DNA of 64,000 nucleotides from a bacterium (GTDB lineage: Bacteria > AUK180), in the NCBI GenBank assembly GCA_023133295.1, contig JAGLWT010000116.1, forward strand, positions 13,218 to 77,217, in the 5' to 3' direction. The notes beneath the pieces are model-generated. The model was given only the letters and a program-made list of their open reading frames with translations, was not told where the DNA came from and did not search any database. Made by a program: the position numbers and the translations under genes. Of this stretch, positions 34,084 through 51,371 are shown piece by piece (within the stretch, counting starts at the first letter, position 1; each line of letters starts with the position of its first letter).

Positions 34084-34788
34084 TCATTTTTTCAGTCTTT
34101 CGCTGAAGAGGACAAAAAAGGCATAAATAGCATCTATCCAATGAATTTTGCTTTCCTCGACCTTTCTCGGAGTATAAGATATCGGGATCTCACAGAATCT
34201 ATAATTGAATTTAAAGATCTTTGCTGTGATCTCACACTCCATTTCAAATCCGTCATATTTCAGATTCAACGACTCCAGAATGCCTTTTCTGAACACCTTA
34301 TAGCCCGATGCTTCATCTGTAATATTTTTTCCATATAGTATCCGCACCGTCAGATTAATGAGTTTATTCGCCAGGAGCCGGGGAATTGATTTCATTTTTA
34401 CTTTTTTCAAAAATCTTGAACCGTATACAACATCGGCCTGCCCTGCTATGATCGGGAGTAACAAACCGGATATCTCTTCCGGATAATACTCCAGATCGGC
34501 ATCCTGAATAACAACAATATCACCGGAAGACACTTTCAAGCCTTTTTTTATTGAATAACCCTTTCCTCTGTTCACGCGGTTTTCACAAAGGATATCATAA
34601 AGATTGAAGTTCTCTTTCAATATTGCGTTCGAACTGTCTGTCGAACCGTCGTCCACTACGATGACTTCATGTTTAAATGAAAGCTTGGCGATCCGCTCAA
34701 GGACCTTCAGGATAGTTTCCGATTCATTGAAAGCCGGAATGATTATCGAGATCATCGCGTCAAATTCCGCGTTCTTCATATTTCTCAT
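34084..34788 (-). CDS. Family-2 glycosyltransferase, polyprenol-phosphate sugar synthase (Dpm1/ArnC/GtrB)-like
   Basis: ISIIIPAFNESETI, VIVVDDGSTDSS, VVIQDADLEYYPEE (DAD) and GSRF motifs at 234 aa are typical of Dpm1-like GT2 enzymes, which supply lipid-linked monosaccharide donors to GT-C enzymes. Confidence 0.7.
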   Translation of the reverse strand: MRNMKNAEFDAMISIIIPAFNESETILKVLERIAKLSFKHEVIVVDDGSTDSSNAILKENFNLYDILCENRVNRGKGYSIKKGLKVSSGDIVVIQDADLEYYPEEISGLLLPIIAGQADVVYGSRFLKKVKMKSIPRLLANKLINLTVRILYGKNITDEASGYKVFRKGILESLNLKYDGFEMECEITAKIFKFNYRFCEIPISYTPRKVEESKIHWIDAIYAFFVLFSERLKK

Positions 34789-37310
34789 TTTTCATCCCAT
34801 AAGATCCGGTACAATAAGGGGTAGTTGCTTCTATCTTCTATTGTGATATCGGGAAGGGATGATCCTTGGTCATTAAAATCGTAGTAGGTGAACAAATATC
34901 TAAAATAATCCTCCATTACAAGCGTCTTAGCACTCGCAAATTCATTGTATATCTTCAATGAATCAGCAGGACCCCAATCCTTATCAATATATTTTTTTGT
35001 GTACATCTCAATGGTAGTCCTTATAAGATCTTTTTCATCCTGATTCAGTCTTTTCTCCTCCTTTAGAAGAAAGGGAAAAAGTTCAGGAAAAAATAGACCG
35101 ACAGAACGAAGATCCCTGATAAACCCCTCGCCCAGGACAGAATATGTGTTTCCGTATAATTTATTATGACGCAGAGCAAAGCGGCAAGGTTCAATAATGC
35201 TACTTTTCATTATTTTTTCGTAAAGTTCCTTGAAAGCAGAACTTTCCGAAGGATTTATCAGGTATTTAAGATAGGGATATTCTGAAAATTCTCCTTCAAG
35301 TATCATACTCGCAAAAGAACTGGTGCAATCTGGATCGATCCTGTACGGGAGATTCCATATGGTGTAAAGCGGCCCTTTCAGGTAGGAGTAGGAAGAGAAA
35401 TATTCCGCTAAGACAACGATATTCTCTTTTTCGGCAATCTTCGTATCGAAATTAAATAAGTAATAGAGCGGATTGAAAATATTCTCTTCGGAATCCTTCA
35501 GAAAAGGAGGAAAAGGGCTGTAAAGGTCTTTCAGGAGAAGATATTTTCTGTCTTTTTCAATTCTAACGAGAGCCGATATTTTATCAAATCTCTTTTTGCC
35601 AAATCCAAATGGTGAATTTCTTAAGGATATTATTTCCTCGATCTCCTTCCTTCTGTCTGATAATTCCCCATAAGTCCTTGCGGCTTCATAATTTCCAAGC
35701 AGTATATTTATTACCGCTATATTTTCTGTGGTATATATCGGTTTGCGAAGCAGTCCTTTTCCCTCGCCGTATTCACCTGTTCGGAATTTAGCGATTGCCA
35801 ATGAAAAAAAGTTTTCCGCGGAGGGGTCGTATTTGACCAGCTCCTCAAGTTCGTCTGAGATCTGCTGCCATCTATTTTCAAAGCGGTAGTATTTCAAAAG
35901 CATTTTCCTTGTGTGTTTCAGTTCCGGTACCAGATATTTAGAAAAAAGGAGTAATTCTTCCGCCTCGCTTTTCTTTCCGCGCTGAAGCAGAATTTCTGCT
36001 TTCAGATTTAAAAGTTCTGGATAAAGATCCTCATCCAATGCAGAATCAATATATTTAATCGCCTGTTCATAATCACCTTTTTTATAGGATTCCACTGATT
36101 TTGCATTGAATTCAAGATAGCGCTTATAAAAGATCTGATGATTTCCAAGTTCGCCTGTGAACTGGATTATATTAATAGAGATCGGGATCAGCAGGAGTGC
36201 CCATTTTATGCTTCCGGGCAGGGCTATGCTCCGGATTTTATATTTGAACGGATAAAATAGGAGTATGAAGATCAAGACAGCGATCGGCTGATGCAAAGGA
36301 AAATCAAATATAAGGGATATTAAAAATGCCAGAAGGGGGGCGCTTCGGGATGTTGCCTGACCAAGAAGATATTCTGATAAGGAAATAAATACGATCAGAA
36401 ATAAGAAAATGCCGATGAATCCTCCCTCAACACCCATGTGTATGATCTCGCTATGGGCGCGCCTGACCAGAAATTTGGAGGTGGAGTAAAGCCCTTTTTC
36501 TTTACTTACTGCAGCAAGGTTCTTCTTATATGCCGATGGAAACCTGCCTAGGCCGGTGCCGAAAGGATTTTCAATTACTGTTTTCAAGCCGGTCCTGATT
36601 ACGGTTCTTCTGGTATTTAAAGGGTGAGCAACGGTTATTACAAGGAAAAATCCCAGAATGATGGCAGTATAGAATATTATTCTCCTCAGAATACTTTTTT
36701 TGATTAATGAGATCAAAATAGACAGCAGGGTTATTGCTATCATTATTTTAGAAAATGTCATCAAAAGAGCTATCCCTGAAACAAATAGAAAAAAGTAATT
36801 TCTCTTTTTGAAAAAGAACATTTCTGCAAGAAATCCCATCGTCAGTACTACCGCCAGTTCATTAGGATTCCCCATAGTCGAGAACACACGCTTACCCGAC
36901 CAGTCAAATTCCCAGAATGAAAAATCTATCTTGAAAAATTGCAGGACTGCGTACAGCGAAACAAGGAATATCGAAACACGCAGCCAACGATAAAGAATAT
37001 CGGTATTGAAACTGGATTCCGAGATCAAAAGAAAAAGCAATACCTGAACAAGGCAGAAAAATCCACACCAGGATGGATTGACAGCAAAGAAGACCAGAGC
37101 GGCGAAAAAGATCAGAATCGATCTGAATGTAACCCTCTTAATAGTAAAAACCACGGGCAAAAAAGATATTAACAGTAATTTGGGAAGAAGAAAAGAACTT
37201 TTAAGTATTGGAAGAAATATCAGTACCGATAGAAATATCAATGCCCCGGCAAAATGTACGGTATATGTTTTCTTTCCCATTGATTTTTTTTCTACATCTT
37301 GTTTCTGCAT
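34785..37310 (-). CDS. Wzy_C (O-antigen ligase / PglL-type oligosaccharyltransferase)-like polytopic membrane protein with C-terminal TPR repeats
   Basis: About 10-12 TM helices with a HSEIIHMGVEGGFIG loop, resembling the Wzy_C His/Arg catalytic loop. The C-terminal about 450 aa contain TPR-like repeats (YEQAIKYIDSALDEDLYPELLNLKAEILLQRGKKSEAEELL...). Confidence 0.5.
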   Translation of the reverse strand: MQKQDVEKKSMGKKTYTVHFAGALIFLSVLIFLPILKSSFLLPKLLLISFLPVVFTIKRVTFRSILIFFAALVFFAVNPSWCGFFCLVQVLLFLLISESSFNTDILYRWLRVSIFLVSLYAVLQFFKIDFSFWEFDWSGKRVFSTMGNPNELAVVLTMGFLAEMFFFKKRNYFFLFVSGIALLMTFSKIMIAITLLSILISLIKKSILRRIIFYTAIILGFFLVITVAHPLNTRRTVIRTGLKTVIENPFGTGLGRFPSAYKKNLAAVSKEKGLYSTSKFLVRRAHSEIIHMGVEGGFIGIFLFLIVFISLSEYLLGQATSRSAPLLAFLISLIFDFPLHQPIAVLIFILLFYPFKYKIRSIALPGSIKWALLLIPISINIIQFTGELGNHQIFYKRYLEFNAKSVESYKKGDYEQAIKYIDSALDEDLYPELLNLKAEILLQRGKKSEAEELLLFSKYLVPELKHTRKMLLKYYRFENRWQQISDELEELVKYDPSAENFFSLAIAKFRTGEYGEGKGLLRKPIYTTENIAVINILLGNYEAARTYGELSDRRKEIEEIISLRNSPFGFGKKRFDKISALVRIEKDRKYLLLKDLYSPFPPFLKDSEENIFNPLYYLFNFDTKIAEKENIVVLAEYFSSYSYLKGPLYTIWNLPYRIDPDCTSSFASMILEGEFSEYPYLKYLINPSESSAFKELYEKIMKSSIIEPCRFALRHNKLYGNTYSVLGEGFIRDLRSVGLFFPELFPFLLKEEKRLNQDEKDLIRTTIEMYTKKYIDKDWGPADSLKIYNEFASAKTLVMEDYFRYLFTYYDFNDQGSSLPDITIEDRSNYPLLYRILWDEK

Positions 37311-37352: not shown

Positions 37353-40253
37353 TCAGAATTCATGCTGAAGATCCGCGATCTCCATATCGCCCGAGGAATT
37401 GCCGGAAGTAAATCTCAGTAATTTGCCGTCACGGATCTTATATCTTACATAACCCACAGAGAGATCGTAGAAGTTAGTACCGGCCTTATCCTTCAGATAA
37501 CTAAAATCCTTCTGGAATTGAGCAAGTTCCTTGCCCTTGTTGAAATAATCAATATGGAAAAGCATGTCCATGGGCAATGCGAGATTCAGCATATCCTTGA
37601 GTTTGTAATTATACAGAAAGCGTGTGGGCATAAGCACCACATCGACCTTATCGAAATACTGCTTGTATGACATCAATTTATCCACTTCCCCCCTGTCCAG
37701 ATCAGCGGCTAATAAAAACTGTTTTCTTGAGATCTCAATACCCTTTTTCTTCAAGATATAATCGGCCTTAAGTACCATATTATCCTGAAAATAATCCTCT
37801 TTGCCGCTGCTTTCCGGGTATATAGCGTATATCTCAAACACATATTCACTGCTTCCCACTTTCTTACTCTCTTTCAGAATATAATCACCTGCCTTTACCA
37901 CTTCATAGGGTATTTTACTGGACAATAGGGTGTTGCTTACCTTTTGACATGTTTCATATCTGCTTTTTACCCAATAAGCCTGGCCTCTTTCAAGTAAATA
38001 CTCATTATCAGTAGATTTCAAGAAGTCTTCATATGTAGATGCGGATGCTTTTTGCACATTTGTGGGAAGATATACCTTTCCCACGGGATATTCTCTTAGT
38101 ATTGTAGTAACCGCCGAATTATTATCCTGAGAGTAATCCGTCAGGATCAGATCGTCTATGCGGTTGATACCGTAAGACATCAAAATGCTCATGACCACAC
38201 GGTCGGCCTCGTCCCATTCCCTTCTGTTATAGAGAGAATGTTTCCCCGCATTTATCAATACATTTCTCCCCGAAGGCGTTTTGATGAAAACGACATTGCC
38301 TTTGGAAAGGGAGAAGAAGGTTATGTCAACTTCATTATCCCTCTTTGTTGGTATCAGCAGAAGTATGGAGCCCAGAAGTACAATGGCGATTATGATCGCG
38401 GGCAGAAACTTAAATATACGCGCCCTCTTGTCGTGTTTCTGTTTGAATACCGTCAATTTATATTTATAGTCAAGCCATTTACTTTTGATATACGGCAGAT
38501 TGATAATGATAAGCAGCGCTATAAAATAGAATATCAGCCCGCCGAAGGTGAACTTCTTCACATATGGATATGGAAAAGTGGTCGAAAAGAAATGCGCGGA
38601 CTGTATGAAGAGCTTCAACAGCAGATAATTAGCGGCATTGATGAACAGTCCCATATAGATACCGACAACGGGTATCAGAGACAGAATTGCCGCGATCATC
38701 CCCAATTGAACATTGATACCGATGAGGGGTATGGCGATATAATTGGCGTACATACCCGCAATTGGATATCTGCCGAAATAATATGCGGAAAGCGGGATCA
38801 TCATTCCCAGCTGTATCGCGAATTGTGCCGATATAAAGGAGATCAGCCAAGGTGGCATCTTCCTGTAGGATGGAGCGGCAAGTTGCTTTTTTTCCTCAAA
38901 TTTATTGGATAAATACAAAAACACCCCGGAAGCGGCAAAAAATCCCCACAGAAATAGTGAATTAAAGAAATAACTCTTGAAGATGATGATCAGCGCGGTG
39001 AAGGAGGCGAAAACAAAGCAAGCCGCCCAAAAGGTATATCCGATCAGATACTTCTTGAAAATATCATCCAGAAACGGCGTGATAAGGACAAGAGACAGCA
39101 CCGCTCCAAACGATAGAGTAAAGGATGCCTCTCTCAATAGAAGCGGGTTCACAAATAATATCATAAGAGCGGCAACGGAAATACCCACCTCGATCGAGGT
39201 TCGCAGACCCTTGCCGGAAAGTACCCAGGCCATCAGCACGGCACTGTTCATTATTACAGCACGGAGAGTGGATGGCCGTCCGCCGGTGATTATCGCGAAG
39301 ATCACTAAAAAGAGTATTGTAATAACGGCATAAACTCTCCTCGGTACGCCTATCAATGAAAAGATCCCCACAAATAATATCATAAGGATCGTAACATGAA
39401 GCCCCGACACTGCCAGTACATGATTCACGCCCGCCCTTTTGAACTCATCCTTTATCTGATATCGGGCATCGGGCAAGAAGATCCCGTCCATGCCGTATCT
39501 CAGCCCCAGAGTAATACCGCCTAAAAATGCCGACTCCGGGTATTTCACCGTTCTTCGAATGGTCTTCAAGAACTTCTGCTTAATACCCAACGAGAAGGCT
39601 ACAAAGGGATTCTTCTTTGTCAGCTCATCAGGGGTGATGCGTGACGCATCCTTGAAATATGCTGTATAATATACTCCGGTGCTTTCCAGAAATTTTCTAT
39701 AATCAAAGCCGCCCGGATTCGTTGCTTTCTGCGGCCTCTTCAAGTCTGTCTCAAAGGTGATATAGTGGCCGTATGAGAGAAACTCCGGGTATTTGCCTTT
39801 CTTGAACGAATAATTAAGAAGGATCTTCCCCTTTTTTACTTCTTTCGAACGGGCGCCGTTGACCGAGATCTTCAGGGGCTTGATATAAACCCGCATCCTG
39901 TTCTCAAAATATTCGGGCTCTCTGTACACATATCCTTCGACCGTTGCGGATACGAGATCTTCTCCACCGGTAACGGTCAGTATATGCCCTTTTCTGTCAA
40001 TATTCAGAGCATTGTGCGTAAAGGCAAGGCCCAGTACAAATGGCAGAAGGTAAAAAGCCATCAGCATAGGTATCTTCTTGATATAACCCCAGCGCTTATA
40101 GCTATAAAAACCCACAGCTACAGCCGCGAGAAGAATCGCGGCAGAGAGGGCAAAAAAGATAAGCGGAGAGGCCAAAGGAAAGACGCCGAAACTGATGAGG
40201 ATGCCGAGGACAAAGAACAATGTAAAGAGATAGAGTTTATTTTCCCAATACAT
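37353..40253 (-). CDS. comEC: ComEC/Rec2-family DNA internalisation channel with N-terminal DUF4131-like region and a degenerate C-terminal metallo-beta-lactamase domain
   Basis: Competence domain signature AGVNHVLAVSGLHVTILMILFVGIF...RPSTLRAVIMNS. The C-terminal MBL-like fold has DDLILTDYSQDNNSAV where canonical ComEC has LVLTHxDxDHxGG, so the HxHxDH metal ligands are missing. Confidence 0.75.
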   Translation of the reverse strand: MYWENKLYLFTLFFVLGILISFGVFPLASPLIFFALSAAILLAAVAVGFYSYKRWGYIKKIPMLMAFYLLPFVLGLAFTHNALNIDRKGHILTVTGGEDLVSATVEGYVYREPEYFENRMRVYIKPLKISVNGARSKEVKKGKILLNYSFKKGKYPEFLSYGHYITFETDLKRPQKATNPGGFDYRKFLESTGVYYTAYFKDASRITPDELTKKNPFVAFSLGIKQKFLKTIRRTVKYPESAFLGGITLGLRYGMDGIFLPDARYQIKDEFKRAGVNHVLAVSGLHVTILMILFVGIFSLIGVPRRVYAVITILFLVIFAIITGGRPSTLRAVIMNSAVLMAWVLSGKGLRTSIEVGISVAALMILFVNPLLLREASFTLSFGAVLSLVLITPFLDDIFKKYLIGYTFWAACFVFASFTALIIIFKSYFFNSLFLWGFFAASGVFLYLSNKFEEKKQLAAPSYRKMPPWLISFISAQFAIQLGMMIPLSAYYFGRYPIAGMYANYIAIPLIGINVQLGMIAAILSLIPVVGIYMGLFINAANYLLLKLFIQSAHFFSTTFPYPYVKKFTFGGLIFYFIALLIIINLPYIKSKWLDYKYKLTVFKQKHDKRARIFKFLPAIIIAIVLLGSILLLIPTKRDNEVDITFFSLSKGNVVFIKTPSGRNVLINAGKHSLYNRREWDEADRVVMSILMSYGINRIDDLILTDYSQDNNSAVTTILREYPVGKVYLPTNVQKASASTYEDFLKSTDNEYLLERGQAYWVKSRYETCQKVSNTLLSSKIPYEVVKAGDYILKESKKVGSSEYVFEIYAIYPESSGKEDYFQDNMVLKADYILKKKGIEISRKQFLLAADLDRGEVDKLMSYKQYFDKVDVVLMPTRFLYNYKLKDMLNLALPMDMLFHIDYFNKGKELAQFQKDFSYLKDKAGTNFYDLSVGYVRYKIRDGKLLRFTSGNSSGDMEIADLQHEF

Positions 40254-40402
40254 TATTTTTCTTCCAAAAACCCGTAATACGATTCATTGGACCTGAGATT
40301 TCCCTCGATCGTATAATTCTTATCAAAGGCCAGAACCAGGATCGCGGCAATCGCAATGATAATTATCCCTATTAAAATAAAGGCCTTCTTTCCTTTTTTC
40401 AT
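40253..40402 (-). CDS. Small single-pass membrane protein (49 aa), not in the supplied ORF track
   Basis: The reverse complement reads MKKGKKAFILIGIIIIAIAAILVLAFDKNYTIEGNLRSNESYYGFLEEK. Its ATG overlaps the stop of the 663-aa gene as TAATG. Its TAA overlaps the ComEC ATG as TAATG. It fills the only gap in the operon exactly. Confidence 0.5.
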   Translation of the reverse strand: MKKGKKAFILIGIIIIAIAAILVLAFDKNYTIEGNLRSNESYYGFLEEK

Positions 40403-42393
40403 TAACTTCTCCAGTCAAGATAGAATTTGAAAGCCCTCTGCGGAACCGTATTATCAGCCCTTGCCGAATTATCCTGAATATAATACCTTCTTTTGTACCC
40501 TATTTTCAGCTTCAGATTCTTCCACCAGAGTTTTCTGCTGTAATCAACCGACCATTCACGGTATTCCTCAGAGGTGGATGAGTCCGACTTCCTGTAGATA
40601 TTATTATCCGTGGATTTAAACGAGAACAGGAAGTTACCCAGGGCGGGTTTCCAATTCGCCTTCAGCTGATAGGATGCATTGGCCTTTCTCTGAGGCAGAG
40701 AATGTTCCATATAGGTATTGAAGCGGTAAATGCCTGTCAGGCGCAATTTCTCGGACAAGTTGTAATTAAAAGTCACATAAGTCCTTGTGCTTTTGTCCGA
40801 TTCGGAATAATCCGTAATATATGAATCATTCAAGTTCCTTGCTACATCATTATCTTTATACCGCTGCGTCACCGCCATATCAACAAGCGGCGTTATCGGA
40901 TATTGAAATTTTATCGAGCCGTCGAAATTGGTCTGAAGAGTTGAATAATACCTCCAGATATCCGCCTTGGGAGTGATCTCCAATTTTCCCAATTTTAAAA
41001 GCGCATCGAATTTAATACCCCTTTCGTTCTGGGCGGAAAGCTCCGCAGGAGATTCATATGTGGCGAATGTATATGAATAGGGATTTTCAAATTCCCTGTG
41101 GAAATCCCTGTAAATAAAATTGATCCGCGCGGTTTTCTTTTTCATGGTCATCTTCAATAAGAAGCCGTGAGCGCCTGATTCCAATTGCCCGAATTCCGCC
41201 TGAATAGCCGACTTTTTAAAAGGAGTCCACCGCATATTCAATCCCCATACCCATGCATCGAACATGCCTTCAGAGTAATTATTCGGCTTGTAGAGGTCAG
41301 AGGCATAGATCTCCTTATTGTGGTAAACGGTCATTCCGATAAAATTGTCCTCTCCGCCGATGCGCATATGCCCGCCGAAAATGGTCTTGTTAACATAATT
41401 CGGAATGGAAAGAGCGATCGTATCTTCGTCAAAATCGCTCTCTGAATACGCCGATTCATCCGCGCTGAAATCGGCCGAACTGACCAGAAGATGTGAATAC
41501 TGATAGAGCTTGTCCTGTATCTGTGACGCGAAGATGAATATCTCCGCCGGTCCCAGCACCGTTCGCATACCGGCACCAAGGAGGTTCAGATTGAAATCGG
41601 AAGTAACATCACTGGAACGGTCGCCCTTGAAGCCGTACAGATTCTTGTTATCGGATTCATTAAAGACCACGCCAAGACCGAAGCCCGCCATATAATTTCC
41701 CGTGATCAATTGGAAGTTCTTTGTATTCCAGTTTATAAATACCTTAGGCAGAGGCCATACCGTTTTCTTCGGGTCAACGATAACTTCGCCCGGCTGAAGG
41801 AAGATCTCGCCGTTTTCATCATAGGTAACAGGCCCGTCATATTCCTCAAAGCTGTATGTGGCGTATCTGCGTTCCTGAAGAATTCCTATATCCAATACCT
41901 TTCCGAGACGGAAGCGGTATTTGAACTGTACATAAGGCGTCTCTTCTGATTTGGTCGTGGAAGAAACCTCGTCCCTGAATTTAAAGTTGAGGTCGGTTTT
42001 CCTTTTCAATACCTTCTTACCCTTGACCTTCTTTATCTTTACCGGGGGAATGATGCGCATAAATCCCTCAACAAAACTGAAGTCTGTACGCCCGAGGATC
42101 CTTTTGAGGGGCTTGTCATCTTTAAATGGCCGGTTCTTGATGATCTCATCAGCGATCTCAAGGGTTACCTTGGGAAGCCGCAGCAGCTCACTCTTAGGAG
42201 CGCTATTGACCTCTATAGGATTTGAGTAAAGTTCCCAAAGCATAATATACTGCTCTTGATCGATATCTCCGGACTCGTACAGATCGGCGATCTCGTCTTC
42301 CGTAGATATGGGTATCGAAAGATCATAATCCTGAGCAAATGCAAAAGAGGCCAAAAACAAAACGATCAGAAATAGTATTCTACCTTTCATCAT
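40402..42393 (-). CDS. Secreted or outer-membrane protein with an N-terminal ComEA-like helix-hairpin-helix motif followed by a large beta-rich (putative beta-barrel) domain
   Basis: Signal peptide MMKGRILFLIVLFLASFAFA. Then IEVNSAPKSELLRLPKVTLEIADEIIKNRPF, a ComEA-type HhH (NxNxA..eLxxLPGIg.xxAxxIixxR). Then about 550 aa of alternating beta-strand-like sequence rich in Tyr/Phe/Asn. Its start overlaps the stop of the upstream gene as ATGA. Confidence 0.5.
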   Translation of the reverse strand: MMKGRILFLIVLFLASFAFAQDYDLSIPISTEDEIADLYESGDIDQEQYIMLWELYSNPIEVNSAPKSELLRLPKVTLEIADEIIKNRPFKDDKPLKRILGRTDFSFVEGFMRIIPPVKIKKVKGKKVLKRKTDLNFKFRDEVSSTTKSEETPYVQFKYRFRLGKVLDIGILQERRYATYSFEEYDGPVTYDENGEIFLQPGEVIVDPKKTVWPLPKVFINWNTKNFQLITGNYMAGFGLGVVFNESDNKNLYGFKGDRSSDVTSDFNLNLLGAGMRTVLGPAEIFIFASQIQDKLYQYSHLLVSSADFSADESAYSESDFDEDTIALSIPNYVNKTIFGGHMRIGGEDNFIGMTVYHNKEIYASDLYKPNNYSEGMFDAWVWGLNMRWTPFKKSAIQAEFGQLESGAHGFLLKMTMKKKTARINFIYRDFHREFENPYSYTFATYESPAELSAQNERGIKFDALLKLGKLEITPKADIWRYYSTLQTNFDGSIKFQYPITPLVDMAVTQRYKDNDVARNLNDSYITDYSESDKSTRTYVTFNYNLSEKLRLTGIYRFNTYMEHSLPQRKANASYQLKANWKPALGNFLFSFKSTDNNIYRKSDSSTSEEYREWSVDYSRKLWWKNLKLKIGYKRRYYIQDNSARADNTVPQRAFKFYLDWRS

Positions 42394-43868
42394 TCACCTC
42401 CCTGGCCATTATCAACAGCGGGATCGTATTCTCCCGCTTTTATCATATTTCTCATATTCTCAAAGGTCTTGGGACCTATTCTGGGAACATTCATAATATC
42501 CTCTATGTTCTTAAATCCGCCGTTTTGCTTCCTGTAGGAAAGAATGTTCGCCGCTGTCTTCACTCCTACGCGCGGAAGTTTCTGCAGCTCCGCACTGTCC
42601 GCGGAGTTGATATCTATTAACGGTCCGCTGTAAGAGGTTTTCGAGGAGGTGGAAGTGGCCGAGGAACTGCGTGACGGCACAATTTGAGTCGATGACTCAT
42701 ATTTACTGCCAACGGTAATATGGGACCGTATTTTTTCAACGGTCTTAACGCCTATTCTAGAGACATTCTGCAGGTCTTCCACTCTTCTGAACGGCCCGTT
42801 CACCTTCCGGTATTCCACTATACGCTCTGCTGTCTTGCTGCCTATGCCCGGGATCGCGGAAAGCTCCTCCGCATTTGCAAGATTAATATTTATCCTGCCG
42901 TTGATCACCGAGAGTTCGGGTTTGGATTCTTTGTTTCCGAGTCCAAAGGCAAAGGTATGTGTGGCGCCCAGCTCCGGATGTACCTTCAAAGCATATGAAA
43001 CTGCCATTCCGCCGCCGTAAATTCCGAGGCCGGCAGAATAGGAAAAACGCTCCGAGTGAAGATATTCAATGCCGCCAAAGAGAGCAAAGTTATCTGTCAT
43101 ATCGTACTTGATACCAAAATGATATTCGGAGTAAAGGTCCCGTTTAGCCGCGAAATTTTCCAGATATGCGTCATAGTCGGCAAAATCACCGACCGCTTCT
43201 TCTATCTCCGCTTCCTCGGCATCGGTATAACTCCCGAGTCCGTAAGTATGTTTCAGAAACGATGCGGGAATATTCGCGATAAGGTTGAAATAGATATTTA
43301 ATTGGGTAAAAGGGGTATATGAAACCCCTATGCCGACATCCCTCGCCATGTATTCCTGGCCGATATACGGTGCTGAAACATTTCTGAATCTTGCTCCGAA
43401 ATAAAGATCGTTATTTACAAAGAGCACCATTCCCATATCCAGGGCAAGTGTGGATGCCGAACCGATCTCGTCGATAACGACACTCATATACTTCCCCTTG
43501 AAACCAAGCGCGAAATTGGAGCCCACATTGAATGCGCCGGCAAATTGTATTTGCTGTTCCGCATACAGCCATGAGCCGAATTTTACAAGGTTCAGGCCCA
43601 TTGTCATCGAGCCGAAGCGCTTGATATAATTTGCTGAGGTGTTTGCCAGTTCATCCATGCCGTATAGCCGGGATGTGGTAAAATTCAAATGGACATTCTC
43701 CAGATAGGCCAGCATGGCGGGATTATTGTATATCGCCTCAGGTCCCATAAGCACCAGATTGGCTCCACCGGTAGCAAGGTTGAGGGGCATATTCCCCTCA
43801 AATTCAAAGGCAGTCCATCCATTGATGGCTAGAATGATCGAGAAAACTACTATTATTATTTTTTTCAT
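42390..43868 (-). CDS. Fusion protein: FadL/PorV-like outer-membrane beta-barrel (NPA motif) plus two C-terminal ComEA-type HhH DNA-binding domains
   Basis: Signal peptide. GGANLVLMGPEAIYNNPAMLAYLEN N-terminal hatch-like motif, paralogous to the proteins at 13832..14782 and 46947..47831. About 320 aa of barrel-like sequence. Then ININLANAEELSAIPGIGSKTAERIVEYRKVNGPFRRVEDLQNVSRIGVKTVEKI and IDINSADSAELQKLPRVGVKTAANILSYRKQNGGFKNIEDIMNVPRIGPKTFENM, two full ComEA HhH domains separated by a Ser-rich linker. Confidence 0.6.
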   Translation of the reverse strand: MKKIIIVVFSIILAINGWTAFEFEGNMPLNLATGGANLVLMGPEAIYNNPAMLAYLENVHLNFTTSRLYGMDELANTSANYIKRFGSMTMGLNLVKFGSWLYAEQQIQFAGAFNVGSNFALGFKGKYMSVVIDEIGSASTLALDMGMVLFVNNDLYFGARFRNVSAPYIGQEYMARDVGIGVSYTPFTQLNIYFNLIANIPASFLKHTYGLGSYTDAEEAEIEEAVGDFADYDAYLENFAAKRDLYSEYHFGIKYDMTDNFALFGGIEYLHSERFSYSAGLGIYGGGMAVSYALKVHPELGATHTFAFGLGNKESKPELSVINGRININLANAEELSAIPGIGSKTAERIVEYRKVNGPFRRVEDLQNVSRIGVKTVEKIRSHITVGSKYESSTQIVPSRSSSATSTSSKTSYSGPLIDINSADSAELQKLPRVGVKTAANILSYRKQNGGFKNIEDIMNVPRIGPKTFENMRNMIKAGEYDPAVDNGQGGE

Positions 43869-43877
43869 GGCAGCCCC

Positions 43878-46800
43878 CTACATCCTTTTCCCAATGGCAA
43901 CGACTTCTTTCTTATAAATAGATTTCGTTTCATTTCTCAATTCGATATATAGAATATACACACCCATTGGCAGCGGCCGGTTGCGATTATCATCGCCGAT
44001 CCATTTCACAGAGAAAGGCCCCGGCGGAAGAACTGTCTTTTCCGATAATGTCTTTACTTCTCTTCCGGCAATGTCATATACACGCAGCGTGAGCACTCCC
44101 TCGGAAACAACATGCAGGGAGATCTCGGTATATAATCTATTCGGATCGCTGCCGTCATTAACAAAGCTCCTCGGGGAGATCTCGATCTGCGTAATATTGC
44201 CGGCGGGTATCTCCGTTTCATCGCAAGGCCTTCCCATCGTGGGGTTTTCCGTGATCGTCCAATCGGCAAGCGTGTTCGTATCCGTAAATTCCGCATCACG
44301 CGTTATAGATGATTCTTCCTCCACATTATTTGATCTGATGGCATTGGTAGCGGCATAGATCCAATCGTAAATATATCCGCTGTCCGGCTGCTCGCCAAGA
44401 GGATAATCGGGATACTTCGCCATATTGGGGAAAAATTTATAGATCTCTCCGTCCCAATGATATGCTCCTAATTTGGGATCGGATGAAAAATATACCTCAT
44501 AGAAATCGCTGTATTCAATATAAGAGATATCTATCAATTCTGAAACGACCCATGTCGACGCGGCGGGAACCACCTGTCCGTCGGCTATAAGATCGCCGTT
44601 CTCGTCAAAGGGGAATATTTGTTCTTCTGAATTTCTTTCAGCCCATACAACGGCATCTTTGATATTTCCGGAAAAATCCCGGAACTCAAGGTTCTCATCC
44701 GTGCTGGAAAGCGAGAGTTTCGAAAGATAGATCGTTAATATTCCGTCACTTCCCGCGGTAAGTTCGCTGTCATTTTCATTTCCTACGGTGATAATGACAA
44801 ATTCACCGGTTTTCAAGGTCGTTCCGGGCTGAATTATCGCAATTACGCTGTCCGTCAGCATGAAACAACCACCGACATCAACACCTGCTCCGGAATTGCC
44901 GTCATCCTTGCAATAAAGCTCTATCCAATCCGGAAATCCTGAGGGTGAGTAAAAATAAACCTCTGAGATCACGATATCCGTTTCGGCGGGCAATGTATCG
45001 ATCGGATGGCCGTAACCCGGCGTAACGACCAGGGTATTCTTCCAGTCAACTTTATCATTGGTATCCGTATTGTAATAATCTCTGACAATAGAGCCCTTTG
45101 AAAAATCCGATGAAACACAGTCGATCTCTTCGCCGTCAACGGGAGAGCCGTAGCCTATGTTCCATTGGCCGACAGCAAAAGCTTCCTCAAAGTCATCATC
45201 GGACAGGGAGCCGCCCTGATCCGCCCAGCAGACAAGGTCTATCAATTCGCCATTCGGCGTAAATATGCCCATTTGCTCGTCCGAATCGGTTATCCCCGTA
45301 TCGGCGGTCGTCACAAAATACGATGCCTTGGTCAGGGGAAGTTTCCAGTCATCCGCATTATCATATATCAATAATCCGTAATCTCCTGTGCGGAAGATAC
45401 CGGATGAAAGTTTTTTATCGGCTTTTTCGTTCAGGTCCGTAATGGAGGCGCGGGTGCCGTAAGTGGATATCGAATCAAGATCATCAAGATAAAATCCTTT
45501 AAGGTCGATACCGTTTCCATTATTACCGTCATCGATCATGTAAAACTCCACAAAATCCTCGCCATATGTCCCGATAGAATCTACTTCGGTAATTAGGATC
45601 ACAGGGTCCTTTACCGTTATGGACTCTAAATAGTCCGAAACAGAATTTCCGGTGTCCGAGATCGCATTTGCTTTTTGATCCGCTCCCGTGACCCAGAAAC
45701 CTATGATCGAGAGATTGGGTATATCCACGGTAGAACCCTTGGTAAGGTCAGCTCCGCCTTTATAAACCAGGGTATTTCCCCATATAATGCCGTCTTCGCT
45801 GCCGTCAGCGCCGGAGCTGTAGGCGAGTGTTACCGTGCCGGAATCTACGAATACTCCAGTAGAGGTCTTGATCTCATACCATAAACTCAAGGTAGATGTA
45901 TCTTCAATACCGCCCTCTTCTGAAAGTATCAGCTCAAACGATGTGGCTGAAAGAGAAACACGGGGGAAATCTCCCGAAGGAGACATGGAAACAGGAGAGG
46001 GGCCCGTAATATCTATCGGCAAGACCGTAAGGTCCGCGGAAACAATACCATCCACTCCTGTATTTTCCGGTGTTATTTCAATAACTCCCGAAGACAGGCA
46101 TCCGCCGAAATCAACCGTACCCTCACCATTGATCAAGGTCAGCGCGATCGTGTCAGTGCCTCCCGAAAAATGTCCGGTTCCGGCAGGAGAAGCGGATATC
46201 GTAATATCTAGTGTCGGAGACGAGGTATAGACGGAGTAGTTCTCATCAAGAAGCTTAACCGTGACCGTCGTGGTCTCCGGCGTACCCCCGGTAACTTCGA
46301 TCCTTGTGGGGTATACAAAAGCACGGAGATTGATCGAGGACTCGGTAGGCCCGACCGAATTGGGGTGGCGCGGCGTGCCGTAGATAGGGTTGCCCAGATA
46401 ATCGGTGCCGTATATGGTAATAAGATCATTATCCGCCCAATTGGAAGAATCGTTGCCGTCCTTTCCGAGAATGATCTTTTCCATGGAAACGCCGCCCGAC
46501 TGGCCGGCGAACCATCCATCTGAGCAGTCGACTTGATCAATGAGATTAGCGGAGTTATCATACAGGCGGAGGTTTTCTCCGTCATTTGAAAGTTTGCTGT
46601 AGCCAAGGTCTTCAGAATCGCTTTCGATATCGGCGATCGCCTGTTTTACCGGCTCGGTACTGCTTCTGTATTCTATCAGATAATATGCTCCCGATCTGAT
46701 CGTGGTTGTGTTAGCAGTGGTAAGGTCAACAATTATTCCACCGCTATCCCAAATATACCATCCGGTAAGATCGATATCGGAACCCGTGGGATTGTAAAGC

Positions 46801-46940
46801 TCGATCCATTCGTACCCGCTCTGGGCAATGGTCCCGCTCCATGAAAGCTCTGAAATAACAACATCACCGCTTGAAGCGGAATGTATCGCAAGGGGCAGTA
46901 TCGAAAGGATGATCAACAATGCTAATATTTTTTTCATCAT
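43878..46940 (-). CDS. Large secreted multi-domain protein (1020 aa) with at least three lamin-tail-domain (LTD) repeats and a T9SS C-terminal sorting domain
   Basis: Signal peptide. LTD signatures: GDVVISELSWSG...GYEWIELYNPTGSDIDLTGWYIWD; PVILITEVDSIGTYGEDFVEFYMIDDGNNGNGIDLKGFYLDD; DIVISEVYFYSPSGFPDWIELYCKDDGNSGAGVDVGGCFML. C-terminus LTLRVYDIAGREVKTL...GVYILYIEL...KKEVVAIGKRM matches a Por_Secre_tail. Confidence 0.65.
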   Translation of the reverse strand: MMKKILALLIILSILPLAIHSASSGDVVISELSWSGTIAQSGYEWIELYNPTGSDIDLTGWYIWDSGGIIVDLTTANTTTIRSGAYYLIEYRSSTEPVKQAIADIESDSEDLGYSKLSNDGENLRLYDNSANLIDQVDCSDGWFAGQSGGVSMEKIILGKDGNDSSNWADNDLITIYGTDYLGNPIYGTPRHPNSVGPTESSINLRAFVYPTRIEVTGGTPETTTVTVKLLDENYSVYTSSPTLDITISASPAGTGHFSGGTDTIALTLINGEGTVDFGGCLSSGVIEITPENTGVDGIVSADLTVLPIDITGPSPVSMSPSGDFPRVSLSATSFELILSEEGGIEDTSTLSLWYEIKTSTGVFVDSGTVTLAYSSGADGSEDGIIWGNTLVYKGGADLTKGSTVDIPNLSIIGFWVTGADQKANAISDTGNSVSDYLESITVKDPVILITEVDSIGTYGEDFVEFYMIDDGNNGNGIDLKGFYLDDLDSISTYGTRASITDLNEKADKKLSSGIFRTGDYGLLIYDNADDWKLPLTKASYFVTTADTGITDSDEQMGIFTPNGELIDLVCWADQGGSLSDDDFEEAFAVGQWNIGYGSPVDGEEIDCVSSDFSKGSIVRDYYNTDTNDKVDWKNTLVVTPGYGHPIDTLPAETDIVISEVYFYSPSGFPDWIELYCKDDGNSGAGVDVGGCFMLTDSVIAIIQPGTTLKTGEFVIITVGNENDSELTAGSDGILTIYLSKLSLSSTDENLEFRDFSGNIKDAVVWAERNSEEQIFPFDENGDLIADGQVVPAASTWVVSELIDISYIEYSDFYEVYFSSDPKLGAYHWDGEIYKFFPNMAKYPDYPLGEQPDSGYIYDWIYAATNAIRSNNVEEESSITRDAEFTDTNTLADWTITENPTMGRPCDETEIPAGNITQIEISPRSFVNDGSDPNRLYTEISLHVVSEGVLTLRVYDIAGREVKTLSEKTVLPPGPFSVKWIGDDNRNRPLPMGVYILYIELRNETKSIYKKEVVAIGKRM

Positions 46941-46946
46941 ATACTC

Positions 46947-47831
46947 CTACCACCGATACCCAAGGCCGGCTGATACCGTTCCCGGTAAAAGCGATCCGAA
47001 CCCGTATGAGACATCGATCTCCAGCTTGTTCAATCCGATCTGAACACCGAAGAGAATATTTCTTGTGGTATCATTCAATGCATCACTCGCGCCGAATCTC
47101 AATTTTATCCATTTAGTAATATTAAAAGCTAAGCCCGAATTCAAGATCATTGAAGATTCCCTGATAACCGCCTGTGTCAAGAGGGTCAGCGCCATGCCTC
47201 CGTCACCCATTTGCCGTTTATATCGAAAGCCGATACCTCCGGATATAGAAGGGAACGCGCCTTCCTGTTCAAATTCCAGCTTCGTACCCCAATTATTTAC
47301 AAAAAGTCCTATCAGAAGCTTTTTCATCTTAAAGGCAAGGCCGAGGTCAATTAAAAAAGAGTCCGCTGTATATGTATCGATACGGCTGAAAAGGTATTTT
47401 ATATTTACACCGGCATATGTATTCTGGCCGATGGCATCGCCGAAAGAAAGCACAAGTCCAAGGTCGGAAGAATGGAATTGCCCGGTAACCGTGCCTATCT
47501 CATCCCGGGAATCCTGATATCCCCAATTGCCGTAAATGGCAGAGATCCCGACATTGCCGAAATTCTCAAGATACACCGCCGTTGATATTAAAGAGACATC
47601 CATCTCCTCATAATATTTTCTGTAGCTGGTTTTAAAATAATTCCAGCCCGAGATAGGCATCAATGCCGGATTGACCAGTATGGAACCAAAATCATCAATA
47701 TCAACGCCGAGAACGGACCCGCTGCCGCGTGCTCCCGAAGTCGGGTCAATATTAAAAACATTGGAAGAGCCCATTGCGGCAATGCAAACCGAGATCAAGA
47801 GAACCATTATGAATATTACAGATCTCTTCAT
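46947..47831 (-). CDS. Outer-membrane beta-barrel protein, FadL/PorV-like (NPA motif). Putative partner of the adjacent LTD cargo proteins
   Basis: Signal peptide MKRSVIFIMVLLISVCIAA. GSILVNPALMPISG NPA motif. Beta-strand alternation. C-terminal ...GLGYRW. Paralog of the proteins at 13832..14782 and the N-terminal domain at 42390..43868. Confidence 0.5.
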   Translation of the reverse strand: MKRSVIFIMVLLISVCIAAMGSSNVFNIDPTSGARGSGSVLGVDIDDFGSILVNPALMPISGWNYFKTSYRKYYEEMDVSLISTAVYLENFGNVGISAIYGNWGYQDSRDEIGTVTGQFHSSDLGLVLSFGDAIGQNTYAGVNIKYLFSRIDTYTADSFLIDLGLAFKMKKLLIGLFVNNWGTKLEFEQEGAFPSISGGIGFRYKRQMGDGGMALTLLTQAVIRESSMILNSGLAFNITKWIKLRFGASDALNDTTRNILFGVQIGLNKLEIDVSYGFGSLLPGTVSAGLGYRW

Positions 47832-47834
47832 GAT

Positions 47835-50800
47835 CTACCTCACCACCGAGAACTTAACCATCGCGGTGAAGCTATCCGCTTTTACCAGGCCGAAATATAT
47901 CCCCGCGGGGATCTTTCTCCCGTATCTGTCCTTCAAATCCCAACTTATCTGATGGAATCCCGCAGAAAGCACAGCATCGTGTATCTCAATCACCTTTCTC
48001 GCATCCAATGTCAAGATCGTCAGCGTAACATTGGATTCTTCCAGTATGTTTATCTCAAATGTTATCGTGTCGACATCCGGAGTTGCCGGATTCGGATATG
48101 GAGTATATATATTATTCCCGTCAAATGAGGTGTCAATGAAATACTCCAGCAGGTCAACACATGTGAATTCAACTATATGCTTTCCCGCCTCGGAGGCCAG
48201 GGTCAATGTGAATGACGCCGAGCCGTCGGTGCCGGTCCGGGCGGAGGATGGGGCGATAGACGCACCCAAAGGAGTGTCGATAAGAGAGGTGGCGACATCC
48301 GCACCATACAATCCCAATCCGGTATCAGAAGTGATATAGACCAAGATATCCCGATCCTTCCCGGGAGCGGTATGCGGATCTTCCGCGGGGTCAAATGTCA
48401 TTACCGCGGGAGAAAGGACATCAAATTCAGGCGAATTCAGTTCAACAAGGTCTGTACCGTTCTCTAAAATGCTTATCCCGAATTCGTATATTCCTTCCGC
48501 ATCAGGGAAATCATAACCATTGAAATCTATGCTCACCGAGCTTGCCGCGGTTATCCCGGGAATGGTAATGGTGGAGCCGGAAACCGTATAGGCGACCGTA
48601 TTGGAAGCATCGACGGTTACCGTCAGATTTGCCAATGTGGGTTGAGTAAAACTTGAATGAACAACAATATACAGATCATCGTCTCCATCCAGCTTGGGAT
48701 AACCTACCGTATAATCAATACCCAGATCTCCATTGCCGCCTTGGCAAAGCGGGACATTGGGAGTTTTTGAAATGCCATAAGAGCCGGAAACCGCAGAATC
48801 CACATTGCCGAAAGGCGAGGAATTGCCTGATTCATCAAGGGCCTTCACCGAAATATAATATGTTGTGCCGGCAGGCAGCATCGTCAGTGCATGCTCCTCT
48901 GTCTGAGTCGGCAGAAGCGGTGTTATCCCCGAAGTATCGTATTTATCCGCAGCGATAAAGTCAGCGTCATCAGAGATCGGGGCGGTGGAATAAGCGATCT
49001 CATAACTATCACATTGAGATACGCCAAGTCCGTTCTCGCCCACTGCGGTAAAGTTTATTCTGATACCGCCGATCGTAGGATGGGAATATGCGCTAAGGTC
49101 ATTGATCACCGATGGCGATCGATTATCGATGGTATTGAAAGAGAAGAGATAATCTCCACCGGGAGCGCCGTCATTATCTCCGTCAAGGCCGTTGCCTGAT
49201 ATATCCATCGCTCTAGAGTAAACGGTAATATCATATGAGGTGTCTTCTGTAAGCGGAGCCGTAAGGGTCATCGTTAATGTCTCATTGCCGGCATCCCAGG
49301 AAAGCGTATATGCTACAGCCGGCACTATCTCAAGCGATAAATCCACCGATACGGTATTCATTTCCTCTGAGAATGTGATGATAATATCGGTCACTGTATC
49401 TATATTCACTCCCGAATCGATCGGAGATGTGTATAGAACGGTCGGTGAGGCATAATCTCCACAGCTTGTACTGTAATTTGAGTTTTCAGCACAGGGTGTG
49501 GCATTAAGCGGATTATTGTCGGCATCAAGGCCGTTTATTGTAATTCCGTCATTGGAACCCCAGTTACCGGCGACCGAACCGCCGACACATGGATCTATTC
49601 TCTCCATTGTGAAATAATTAGGGGATCCCGTACCTGCGTACCAACCGGCACTACAATCGACCAGATCAACTGTCACATTGGATGAATTCTTTAAAGTTAT
49701 CGTCACACCGGTGTTGCTCAAACTGAGAGATGTATCCACAAGTCCGCCCGCAACATCATTCACGGTATCCTCGGAATTTTCAATAAGGTAATATCCGAAA
49801 GCGGGAATAGTTCCCGAAAGCGTTTCCGTCGAGAACCCGACTCCCTGAACATACCAGCCGGTAAGGTCGATCCCCTCACCTGTCGGATTGTACAGCTCTA
49901 TCCACTCATCGGAAGATGAGTGCAATGTACCGCCGAAGGCGACTTCATTTACAACAACCTTTCCGGTCATTGACTCATATACTTCGATCAAGGGAGATGC
50001 TCCGATCGCCGAAAGCGTCCCTGTGCCTTTTGATCTTACGGTATAGGTATATGTTCCGAGCGTGTCGCACATAGCACCGGGCGAACCCGAAGACATATCT
50101 CCATAAATGAATACTAATGTATTTCCGGTATCGAGCGTAGTAATATCCGCTATTATCTCCCAACCAGTGGTCTCATTTCCCGTAATGGAAGCGATCGATG
50201 CCGCGGCATCGCCGGAAAGGGAAAGATATCCTTCCGATGCAGGAGCTCCGTCCTGCGGCTGTGACCAATTCGCGGGAATATATAGCGCGACCTGCCCGCC
50301 TGCCATATCAAGCGATGCGGTATAGATCACATTTACGCTCTGATGATTATCCTTGAGAATATTAGAGGGATATGCGACCGCCGTACCGGTACCGTCACCG
50401 TATTGCGATGTCTGAAAACTGAATGTATATGTATCTCCGCCCGAATCATCCACTGAAGCGGAGTCAGCCAGCGTATTGCCCGCTACATCCGCAACTATGG
50501 TCTTATCGATCTCAATATAATATGTCGCCCCGAATGACAGTGTATTATGTGTGATCGTAAGTGTTTGTGTAGTATTTGACCATGCATATCCTTCTCCTCC
50601 GGGTGAGGGTGATATAATTATCCCCAAAGTGGAGGTATCCGCCATTTCCTCGTCAAAATCTATTGTGATATCGGCCAAGGGGTTGACCGCCGACGCGCCG
50701 TTAACCGGGGCCGTCGCGGTTATGGTCGGAGCTTGCGTATCCGCAGCTGCACCGCCGCAGGTCGAAACCATACAGGAATTGTCCTGACCTGGAGTACCGT

Positions 50801-51371
50801 GAATGGCATTTGAACCAGAATCCGCTCCATTTATGGTAACTCCATCATTTGTAGCCCAATTGGAACACACATTTCCGGGCGAGCACGGGTCTATCCTTTC
50901 CATCGTATATTCTCCGGTAGTATTTCCTGCACACCATGCCCCGCTATTGTCATCAGCAACATCGATCACATTGCCGGTAGCGTCCTGGCCATCGTATAAG
51001 ATAATACTGTCTCCGCCGGCGTTCATTCCTATCGTAAGGTCCCAGATCTCAATTGTAGCTCCCGAAGTGAATACTCCGGCATCATTTGCGTATATCAGAT
51101 AGCCATTGGCGGGAATGATAGTGGTATTGTTTCCGTCGGCTGCTGAAATATTCAGGACAACCCCGGTATCAGCGCCATAGATCGACCAAGCGGCTATATC
51201 GATCGGTGCATCTGTGGTATTATAGAACTCTATCCATTCATCACTTGCCGAATCCGTGGTTCCGTCATAGGCGATCTCATTGATGACAACATCACCGGGA
51301 GTCGCCGCTTCCGCGATCTGCATAGATATCAAAAGCAAGGCGGCAATAAATATGATCGTTATTTTCTTCAT
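47835..51371 (-). CDS. Large secreted protein (1178 aa) with two lamin-tail-domain (LTD) modules, Ig-like/beta-rich repeats and a T9SS C-terminal sorting domain
   Basis: Signal peptide MKKITIIFIAALLLISMQIAEA. LTD signatures: GDVVINEIAYDGTTDSASDEWIEFYNTTDAPIDIAAWSIYG and GKVVVNEVAFGGTLHSSSDEWIELYNPTGEGIDLTGWYVQG. C-terminus VTLTILTLDARKVIEIH...ISWDL...GIYFGLVKAD...KFSVVR matches a Por_Secre_tail. Confidence 0.65.
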   Translation of the reverse strand: MKKITIIFIAALLLISMQIAEAATPGDVVINEIAYDGTTDSASDEWIEFYNTTDAPIDIAAWSIYGADTGVVLNISAADGNNTTIIPANGYLIYANDAGVFTSGATIEIWDLTIGMNAGGDSIILYDGQDATGNVIDVADDNSGAWCAGNTTGEYTMERIDPCSPGNVCSNWATNDGVTINGADSGSNAIHGTPGQDNSCMVSTCGGAAADTQAPTITATAPVNGASAVNPLADITIDFDEEMADTSTLGIIISPSPGGEGYAWSNTTQTLTITHNTLSFGATYYIEIDKTIVADVAGNTLADSASVDDSGGDTYTFSFQTSQYGDGTGTAVAYPSNILKDNHQSVNVIYTASLDMAGGQVALYIPANWSQPQDGAPASEGYLSLSGDAAASIASITGNETTGWEIIADITTLDTGNTLVFIYGDMSSGSPGAMCDTLGTYTYTVRSKGTGTLSAIGASPLIEVYESMTGKVVVNEVAFGGTLHSSSDEWIELYNPTGEGIDLTGWYVQGVGFSTETLSGTIPAFGYYLIENSEDTVNDVAGGLVDTSLSLSNTGVTITLKNSSNVTVDLVDCSAGWYAGTGSPNYFTMERIDPCVGGSVAGNWGSNDGITINGLDADNNPLNATPCAENSNYSTSCGDYASPTVLYTSPIDSGVNIDTVTDIIITFSEEMNTVSVDLSLEIVPAVAYTLSWDAGNETLTMTLTAPLTEDTSYDITVYSRAMDISGNGLDGDNDGAPGGDYLFSFNTIDNRSPSVINDLSAYSHPTIGGIRINFTAVGENGLGVSQCDSYEIAYSTAPISDDADFIAADKYDTSGITPLLPTQTEEHALTMLPAGTTYYISVKALDESGNSSPFGNVDSAVSGSYGISKTPNVPLCQGGNGDLGIDYTVGYPKLDGDDDLYIVVHSSFTQPTLANLTVTVDASNTVAYTVSGSTITIPGITAASSVSIDFNGYDFPDAEGIYEFGISILENGTDLVELNSPEFDVLSPAVMTFDPAEDPHTAPGKDRDILVYITSDTGLGLYGADVATSLIDTPLGASIAPSSARTGTDGSASFTLTLASEAGKHIVEFTCVDLLEYFIDTSFDGNNIYTPYPNPATPDVDTITFEINILEESNVTLTILTLDARKVIEIHDAVLSAGFHQISWDLKDRYGRKIPAGIYFGLVKADSFTAMVKFSVVR

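Follow-up and report, generated by a model that had tools for sequence, protein, structure and literature searches.

A conserved gene for a predicted 49-residue membrane protein lies in the comEC operon of uncultured bacteria

Does ComEC, the universal gate for transforming DNA, have a small membrane partner in some uncultured bacteria? The question is raised by a 64,000-nucleotide (nt) stretch of a bacterial contig (GTDB lineage Bacteria; AUK180; GenBank assembly GCA_023133295.1, contig JAGLWT010000116.1, positions 13,218 to 77,217 of the forward strand), which we call the window and number from its first letter. On its minus strand, a 49-amino-acid (aa) open reading frame (ORF), encoding MKKGKKAFILIGIIIIAIAAILVLAFDKNYTIEGNLRSNESYYGFLEEK, separates comEC from the gene of a 663-aa protein with a ComEA-like HhH motif (Table 1). 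A preliminary description, made from the sequence alone, had reported that this ORF fills the gap between the two genes with a TAATG overlap at either end, and this proved exact by both the sequence and the ORF list; a GGAG lies 8–11 nt upstream of the small gene at the HhH junction. The ORF had also been called unannotated. That is true of the ORF track, which has a 60-aa cut-off and omits it, but NCBI holds an identical protein as 'hypothetical protein KAU32_08760 [bacterium]', and gene callers had called the identical protein on 11 public contigs. The small gene is a clean example of a functional gene concealed by ORF length cut-offs.

The small ORF is almost certainly a real gene. The double overlap, presented earlier as unlikely by chance, is real but is weaker evidence than had been claimed, since junctions of −1 and −4 nt are common in the same cluster. 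By chance, an open frame of 48 codons appeared in 1.7% of sequences made by shuffling the bases of the ORF and in 4.2% of random ones matched to the window in composition, both figures being computed before exact placement of the start and the stop was demanded. These rates and the overlaps are suggestive of a gene and do not decide the matter; it is conservation that settles the case. The fate of the frame in orthologous loci had been set beforehand as the test, and an intact ORF of 48–49 aa was found in the same slot in all seven orthologous lineages (L009, L010 and L013–L017). A protein search returned two diverged copies (86% and 77% identity), both of 49 aa and both in that slot, and the contigs of the homologues of the 663-aa neighbour (P0005–P0008, 46–50% identity) each had a called 48-aa ORF between the neighbour's homologue and comEC.

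The small protein is conserved to the same degree as its neighbours. Its orthologues show no internal gaps when aligned and have 46–59% identity to the window protein. Across the four lineages in which all three proteins were compared with those of the window, identity is 47–59% for the small protein, 46–50% for the 663-aa neighbour and 57–59% for ComEC. The peptide is under purifying selection. By the Nei-Gojobori method, the proportions of synonymous (pS) and nonsynonymous (pN) differences were 0.36 and 0.08, respectively, in the closest pair, and 0.61–0.99 and 0.17–0.41 in all other pairs, synonymous sites being saturated in the more distant ones. Because pN lies far below the saturated pS, both a chance ORF and a mere coupling spacer are ruled out. 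The 1-nt overlap between the HhH gene and the small gene was retained in six of the seven lineages, as TAATG, TAGTG or TGATG, and is replaced by a 1-nt spacer in L014. An A-to-G change at the common base in L009 turns TAA/ATG into TAG/GTG, so that both stop and start survive, and L010 has TGATG at both ends of the small gene. Thus, the coupled architecture has been kept through sequence change. We considered a frameshifted fusion of the small ORF to ComEC and rejected it, since the distance from the small-gene stop to the comEC start is not constant: where genes have been called, some lineages overlap by as much as 4 nt and others are separated by up to 15 nt. Four metagenome loci have a GTG or TTG start within a few nucleotides of the small-gene stop.

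We then asked how far the gene extends beyond these lineages and what it travels with. A family profile was built from eight close members and searched with hmmsearch against 1.84 billion representative proteins (E ≤ 1e-3), giving 56 hits, all of 45–150 aa. For metagenomes, the conserved motif was back-translated by hand into a degenerate DNA pattern, which was validated before the scan on the window (one match against none expected) and on known loci (17 of 18 matched). The scan returned 20 loci, 14 of which are genuine family members; the other six, namely L027/L037 (within an SMC-like ATPase), L028, L029/L033 and L038, are chance hits. With the metagenome members added, the family comprises 79 distinct sequences. 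Source labels of members include candidate division CSSED10-310, Elusimicrobiota, Spirochaetota and Candidatus Dependentiae, and all known members come from uncultured organisms.

Every locus with enough sequence places the small gene in the comEC operon, on the same strand and 5' of comEC. It lies directly 5' of comEC in all but one subclass and is usually tightly coupled to it. At 12 of the 13 testable metagenome loci, a same-strand hit to a ComEC hidden Markov model (E 1e-10 to 1e-141) lies in a frame that begins at or overlaps the small-ORF stop; a further locus, L031, has only 15 nt of downstream sequence and falls outside the 13. At L024 the small gene is followed instead by a homologue of a 1130-aa PDDEXK_1 protein. 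This locus was a candidate for an exception without comEC, which we discarded when a tblastn search matched the DNA beyond its small gene to the same PDDEXK-family protein as in L042, where the order is small gene, PDDEXK_1 gene, comEC. In other phyla, homologues lie in comEC operons whose upstream genes are unrelated (Table 1); it is thus comEC, and not the HhH gene, that the small gene accompanies.

One member offers a further clue to a link with DNA uptake. P0056 (150 aa, Spirochaetota, L039/L040 6001-6453) joins the same helix and motif, through a very Lys-rich linker, to a ComEA HHH_3 domain (1.5e-17). Its match to TIGR01259 spans only the C-terminal part, its gene lies directly 5' of comEC, and no other family member that was scanned bears an HHH domain. 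ComEA does its work beyond the cytoplasmic membrane, and a fusion to it therefore points to a periplasmic location for the C-terminal side of the helix. It also suggests that the module works where DNA passes to ComEC.

The protein itself was described earlier as a single-pass membrane protein, and hydropathy gives one clear transmembrane (TM) helix, with Kyte-Doolittle means of at least 2.9 in all eight relatives scored. An AlphaFold2 (AF2) model from a 61-sequence alignment has an overall confidence score (pLDDT) of 88.8 and predicts a helix over residues 3–26 (pLDDT about 96), a turn, and short helices at 32–38 and 44–47; the window protein ends 23 residues past the helix. It matches the family profile at E 1.7e-23 and carries A20, V23, Y30, N35, S38, N39, Y42 and Y43 (column frequencies over the 79 sequences, in window numbering, are in Table 1). 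Residues fixed within the helix suggest that it is no generic anchor but has a specific packing partner. In the window clade, lysine plus arginine residues average 3.4 on the N-terminal side of the helix and 2.6 on the C-terminal side, which favours a cytoplasmic N-terminus there. The protein probably adopts an N-in/C-out topology, judging from the MKKGKK flank of the window clade and the ComEA fusion.

Neither Pfam, NCBIfam nor the searchable literature describes the family. Pfam gave no family for the window protein at E ≤ 0.01, its best NCBIfam match was AmaP (E 0.059, 13 bits against a cut-off of 55), and Foldseek found no match to the 49-aa model in the PDB. Ten family members searched against Pfam returned only sub-threshold noise at E ≤ 1, and none matches a curated family in Pfam or NCBIfam. 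A type IV pilin or pseudopilin was also considered, but MKKGKKAFILIGIIII has no class III site of the form G/[FM]-x-x-x-E (slashes in such motifs mark the cleavage boundary), there being no Gly-Phe or Gly-Met and no Glu at +5, and no pilin Pfam hit was obtained. Pfam likewise gave no HHH hit in the 49-aa protein. In longer members of 66–100 aa (P0022, P0023, P0028, P0046, P0049, P0057, P0058 and others), the tail is acidic and of low complexity and closes with a conserved D-[FI]-E-F or V-E-F, absent from the window protein; this C-terminus may be a docking motif.

The partner gene is a clear comEC. The window ComEC matches DUF4131 (1.8e-23) and Competence (1.8e-38) in Pfam, ComEC_Rec2 in NCBIfam (8.7e-47) and the solved ComEC 30bt (4.6e-47). 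Its three N-terminal TM helices, read from the sequence, are the usual ones, so the small protein would be an extra helix and not a split-off piece of ComEC. No Pfam Lactamase_B hit was found in it, and where ComEC 30bt has the metal-binding motif THPDADHIGG, the window ComEC has TDYSQDNNSA. H-x-D-x-D-H was absent from the MBL domain in all 12 full-length ComECs linked to the small gene (the window, with the domain at 37353-38400, and L014, L015, L017, L018, L019, L021, L035, L036, L040, L043 and L045). Together these proteins look like a nuclease-dead clade. In sister operons, the second gene after that of the nuclease-dead ComEC encodes a separate MBL protein, which has a TM anchor at its N-terminus and keeps HxHxDH intact (Table 1); no separate TM-anchored MBL gene was found in the 64-kb window. 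Two of these operons also have genes for deoxyribose-phosphate aldolase (DeoC) and thymidine phosphorylase directly upstream of the small gene, comEC, comEA and MBL genes (L018 3985-5995, L045 666-2894). This proximity of DNA uptake to deoxynucleoside catabolism hints at the use of DNA as a nutrient.

What, then, would the small protein do? A functional tie to comEC-mediated DNA uptake is very likely, in view of the operon structure. We think it likely, from synteny and conservation, that the protein is a 49-aa bitopic membrane protein of an undescribed family dedicated to ComEC-type DNA uptake. The preliminary description had gone further and proposed a small inner-membrane subunit of ComEC. 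The synteny with comEC across phyla upholds a dedicated component of the ComEC system, whereas the physical subunit is a step that we infer, and for a direct ComEC subunit we regard the case as evenly balanced. Under this proposal, ComEC would be made directly after the small protein from a shared mRNA, an order that would favour matched amounts of the two, and the small protein would insert with its N-terminus in the cytoplasm. Its helix would pack on the ComEC membrane domain through a conserved small-residue face (G/A20, V23, L24), and the conserved 20-residue Tyr/Asn/Ser-rich tail would then lie on the periplasmic face of the membrane, close to the OB fold and the mouth of the channel. There the tail might stabilise or assemble the channel, or help to pass DNA or a partner (a ComEA-type receptor or a separate nuclease) to the nuclease-dead ComEC. 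A stronger version, which we put forward only tentatively and think rather doubtful, gives several uncultured phyla a distinct clade of nuclease-dead ComECs, with the small protein as its defining and obligatory membrane subunit and the tail acting, at the periplasmic channel mouth, in strand handling or in recruiting a nuclease or receptor. If true, ComEC in these organisms would be a two-component channel, unlike the self-contained enzyme of current structures. More generally, a membrane protein travelling with comEC across phyla would add a component to the DNA-uptake machine, and a 48-aa peptide is a cheap and concrete target for co-expression, complex modelling and cryo-electron microscopy of this ComEC clade.

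Three observations weigh against a dedicated ComEC partner in the orientation that we propose. In the MHxFTGK subclass (L042 1044-6199; L024 46-1018), the small gene has its 4-nt overlap with the 1130-aa PDDEXK_1 gene, and comEC is the next gene. For members other than those of the window clade, the positive-inside rule points to the opposite orientation, with a mean of 1.1 lysine plus arginine residues on the N-terminal side and 2.6 on the C-terminal side, the N-terminal side having fewer in 49 of 59 sequences. Finally, no small membrane partner is mentioned in the published structures and models of ComEC (PMC13539106, PMC12663950). The organisms concerned are not known to carry the small gene.

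The alternative that survives best makes the protein an adaptor or tether that would hold a DNA receptor or nuclease at the membrane, and not a ComEC subunit, its helix and motif forming a docking module; in the window lineage, the HhH domains sit on the two upstream barrel-like proteins. The P0056 fusion to a ComEA HHH_3 domain fits such an adaptor, as do the coupling of the small gene to a PDDEXK_1 nuclease-family gene and not to comEC in L042 and L024, and the separate TM-anchored MBL nucleases with intact HxHxDH in sister operons. However, a fusion of this kind occurs in only 1 of the 56 representatives, the ComEA proteins of the L018, L045 and L021 operons have their own hydrophobic N-terminal anchors without the motif, and comEC is the one partner present in every testable operon. 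We consider an adaptor of this kind unlikely as a replacement for a ComEC-dedicated protein, with which it overlaps, since an adaptor could bind both.

Far less probable is a secreted or signalling peptide, such as a competence pheromone, in which cleavage of a signal peptide would free about 22 aa, DKNYTIEGNLRSNESYYGFLEEK. The N-terminus does resemble the n-region and h-region of a signal peptide, the conserved extramembrane part is short, and competence is often regulated by peptides. By inspection, however, the hydrophobic run is 19–20 residues, typical of anchors and long for a signal peptide (7–15), and its boundary reads LAF/D, LIF/N or LTL/N, without conserved small residues at −1 and −3 (VLAF/D, VLIF/N, VLTL/N). 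The conserved motif begins right at the membrane boundary, and neither a double-glycine leader nor a lipobox can be read from the sequence. A discarded leader would not need G20 and V23, which are conserved inside the helix in 94% and 96% of sequences across phyla.

We give similarly little credence to a translational-coupling spacer, an ORF that only brings ribosomes to the comEC start and whose peptide is functionless. The 1-nt overlaps at both ends in the window and the tight spacing in other lineages are what such a spacer would show, but the amino acids of the ORF have been preserved over a span in which synonymous sites reached saturation. Certain residues do not vary from phylum to phylum, the window clade holds to a length of 48–49 aa, and other junctions in the cluster couple without any intervening ORF. 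A chance, untranslated ORF in an intergenic gap, for which one could cite its shortness, its AT-richness (37% GC) and the 1.7–4% chance of a 48-codon frame, is refuted as far as sequence comparison goes by conservation, selection, synteny and the independent gene callers that call it at every locus returned by contig look-ups, and we regard it as vanishingly improbable.

Small single-pass accessory subunits are known from other membrane machines: AcrZ with AcrB, KdpF with KdpABC, CydX with cytochrome bd, and SecG and YajC with SecYEG. Like the AcrZ, KdpF and CydX class, the comEC-linked protein has fewer than 60 aa and one predicted TM helix, shares an operon, and often translational coupling, with a large polytopic partner, has conserved residues on a helix face, and is missed by length cut-offs. 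Unlike all five of these proteins, to which it has no sequence or family relationship (Pfam, NCBIfam, Foldseek against the PDB), its proposed partner is a DNA channel, for which the literature searched describes no subunit of this kind. ComEA, the membrane-anchored or periplasmic receptor for DNA in natural transformation, offers a second comparison, since classical comEA also lies directly 5' of comEC and encodes an N-terminal TM anchor, and P0056 joins the anchor and motif to a ComEA HhH domain. Unlike ComEA (TIGR01259, HHH_3), the window protein has no HhH domain, and the ComEA proteins of the sister operons lack the D-Y-R-I..N-L-x-S-N..Y-Y motif of the small family.

ComEC has been treated as self-contained apart from ComEA and the cytoplasmic ComFA and ComFC (PMC13539106, PMC12663950, PMC12455585). 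Its structures and models have 11 TM helices, three of them before the periplasmic OB fold, as a dimer or a monomer, with ComEA, ComFA and ComFC as partners (PMC13539106, PMC12663950). We found no paper linking ComEC to a small membrane protein. For the accessory proteins ComFA and ComFC, both a complex with ComEC and a requirement in DNA import have been proposed (PMC12663950), and the small protein is likewise proposed as an accessory of ComEC. Unlike it, they are cytoplasmic, much larger, bind single-stranded DNA, dock on the cytoplasmic face, are not encoded 5' of comEC and are unrelated in sequence. In pneumococcus, where the nuclease domain of ComEC is inactive, EndA serves as a backup (PMC12455585). 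The ComECs linked to the small gene have similarly lost metal-binding residues, and several of their operons carry a separate TM-anchored MBL protein with intact HxHxDH; unlike the pneumococcal case, the separate nuclease is an MBL or PDDEXK protein and not EndA, and the pneumococcal picture includes no small membrane protein.

Table 1. Features of the small gene, its product and its surroundings in the window (coordinates without a locus name), with comparison loci (coordinates within the named locus)
Feature	Position	Strand	Details
Small gene	40253..40402	(-)	ATG start, TAA stop, 49 aa (ORF list); GenBank hypothetical protein KAU32_08760
Junction, stop of 663-aa HhH gene / start of small gene	40400..40404	(-)	TAATG, 1 nt (one A) common to both
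Junction, stop of small gene / ATG of comEC	40251..40255	(-)	TAATG, 1 nt common to both
Lys-rich N-terminal flank MKKGKK, residues 1-6	40385..40402	(-)	3-4 K/R within 6-8 residues in eight window-clade sequences
Predicted transmembrane helix, residues 8-26	40325..40381	(-)	mean Kyte-Doolittle 3.37 over 19 residues
Juxtamembrane motif, residues 27-46, DKNYTIEGNLRSNESYYGFL	40265..40324	(-)	family consensus [KN]-x-D-Y-[RT]-[IV]-x-x-N-[LI]-x-S-N-x-x-Y-Y
Family column	residue 20		Gly 94% (Ala in window); inside TM helix
Family column	residue 23		Val 96%; inside TM helix
Family column	residue 24		Leu 77%; inside TM helix
Family column	residue 29		Asp 71%
Family column	residue 30		Tyr 92%
Family column	residue 35		Asn 82%
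Family column	residue 38		Ser 96%
Family column	residue 39		Asn 100%
Family column	residue 42		Tyr 91%
Family column	residue 43		Tyr 91%
comEC, 966 aa	37353..40253	(-)	three N-terminal TM helices, OB fold (DUF4131), Competence channel domain, C-terminal MBL-like domain without metal-binding histidines
663-aa upstream neighbour	40402..42393	(-)	signal peptide, one weak ComEA-like HhH motif, beta-rich region
492-aa protein	42390..43868	(-)	beta-rich N-terminal domain and two ComEA-type HhH_3 repeats
Cluster head	43878..51371	(-)	LTD protein (1178 aa, T9SS C-terminal sorting domain), PorV/PorQ-family barrel (294 aa), LTD protein (1020 aa)
841-aa polytopic protein	34785-37310	(-)	weak O-antigen-ligase (Wzy_C) and TPR hits; 42 nt downstream of comEC
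Separate MBL gene, L018	9777-10811		HPHADH
Separate MBL gene, L045	6831-7817		HQHFDH
Separate MBL gene, L021	1070-2026	(-)	HWHNDH
comEC operon, L018			CSSED10-310 (label of the L018 protein); upstream DeoC, thymidine phosphorylase; small gene stops 2 nt before comEC
comEC operon, L045			no source label; upstream DeoC, thymidine phosphorylase; small gene stops 15 nt before comEC
comEC operon, L043/L044			Elusimicrobiota; unrelated upstream gene; 4-nt overlap with comEC
comEC operon, L039/L040			Spirochaetota; radical-SAM gene upstream; 150-aa member, 1-nt overlap with comEC

In the window, the small gene belongs to a tight minus-strand cluster that runs from 51371 down to about 34084. Intergenic distances at the head of the cluster are 3–9 nt, and a gap of 1138 nt lies upstream of the 1178-aa gene. 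That gap (51372-52509) contains no minus-strand ORF of at least 100 aa and no Rfam match at gathering thresholds. Promoter and terminator scans gave counts not above those of shuffles (43 versus 41.5 and 21 versus 17, respectively). The 492-aa protein matches Pfam HHH_3 in two stretches (1.4e-45) and the NCBIfam ComEA HhH repeat region (1.9e-36), and a comparison of its N-terminal domain with the PorQ-like 294-aa protein gave only E 0.03. For the 663-aa neighbour, the HHH_3 hit (9e-05) is below the gathering score; an AF2 model from five sequences, with a pLDDT of only 50, has N-terminal helices and about 24 long strands, and its beta-rich region is probably an outer-membrane barrel. From the domain hits and this low-confidence model, the genes upstream of comEC (40402-51371) may form a pilus-independent outer-membrane module for DNA capture or uptake that feeds ComEC.

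A scan of genome contigs with the 663-aa neighbour returned, among the matches listed, only near-identical metagenome-assembled genomes (98–99% identity). Near-identical copies of the locus stand under different labels, 'Candidatus Atribacteria bacterium' for L012 (JAIVYW010000117.1) and 'bacterium' for L011 (JAGLGN010000014.1). At the other end of the cluster, glycosyltransferase genes come after the 841-aa O-antigen-ligase-like gene.

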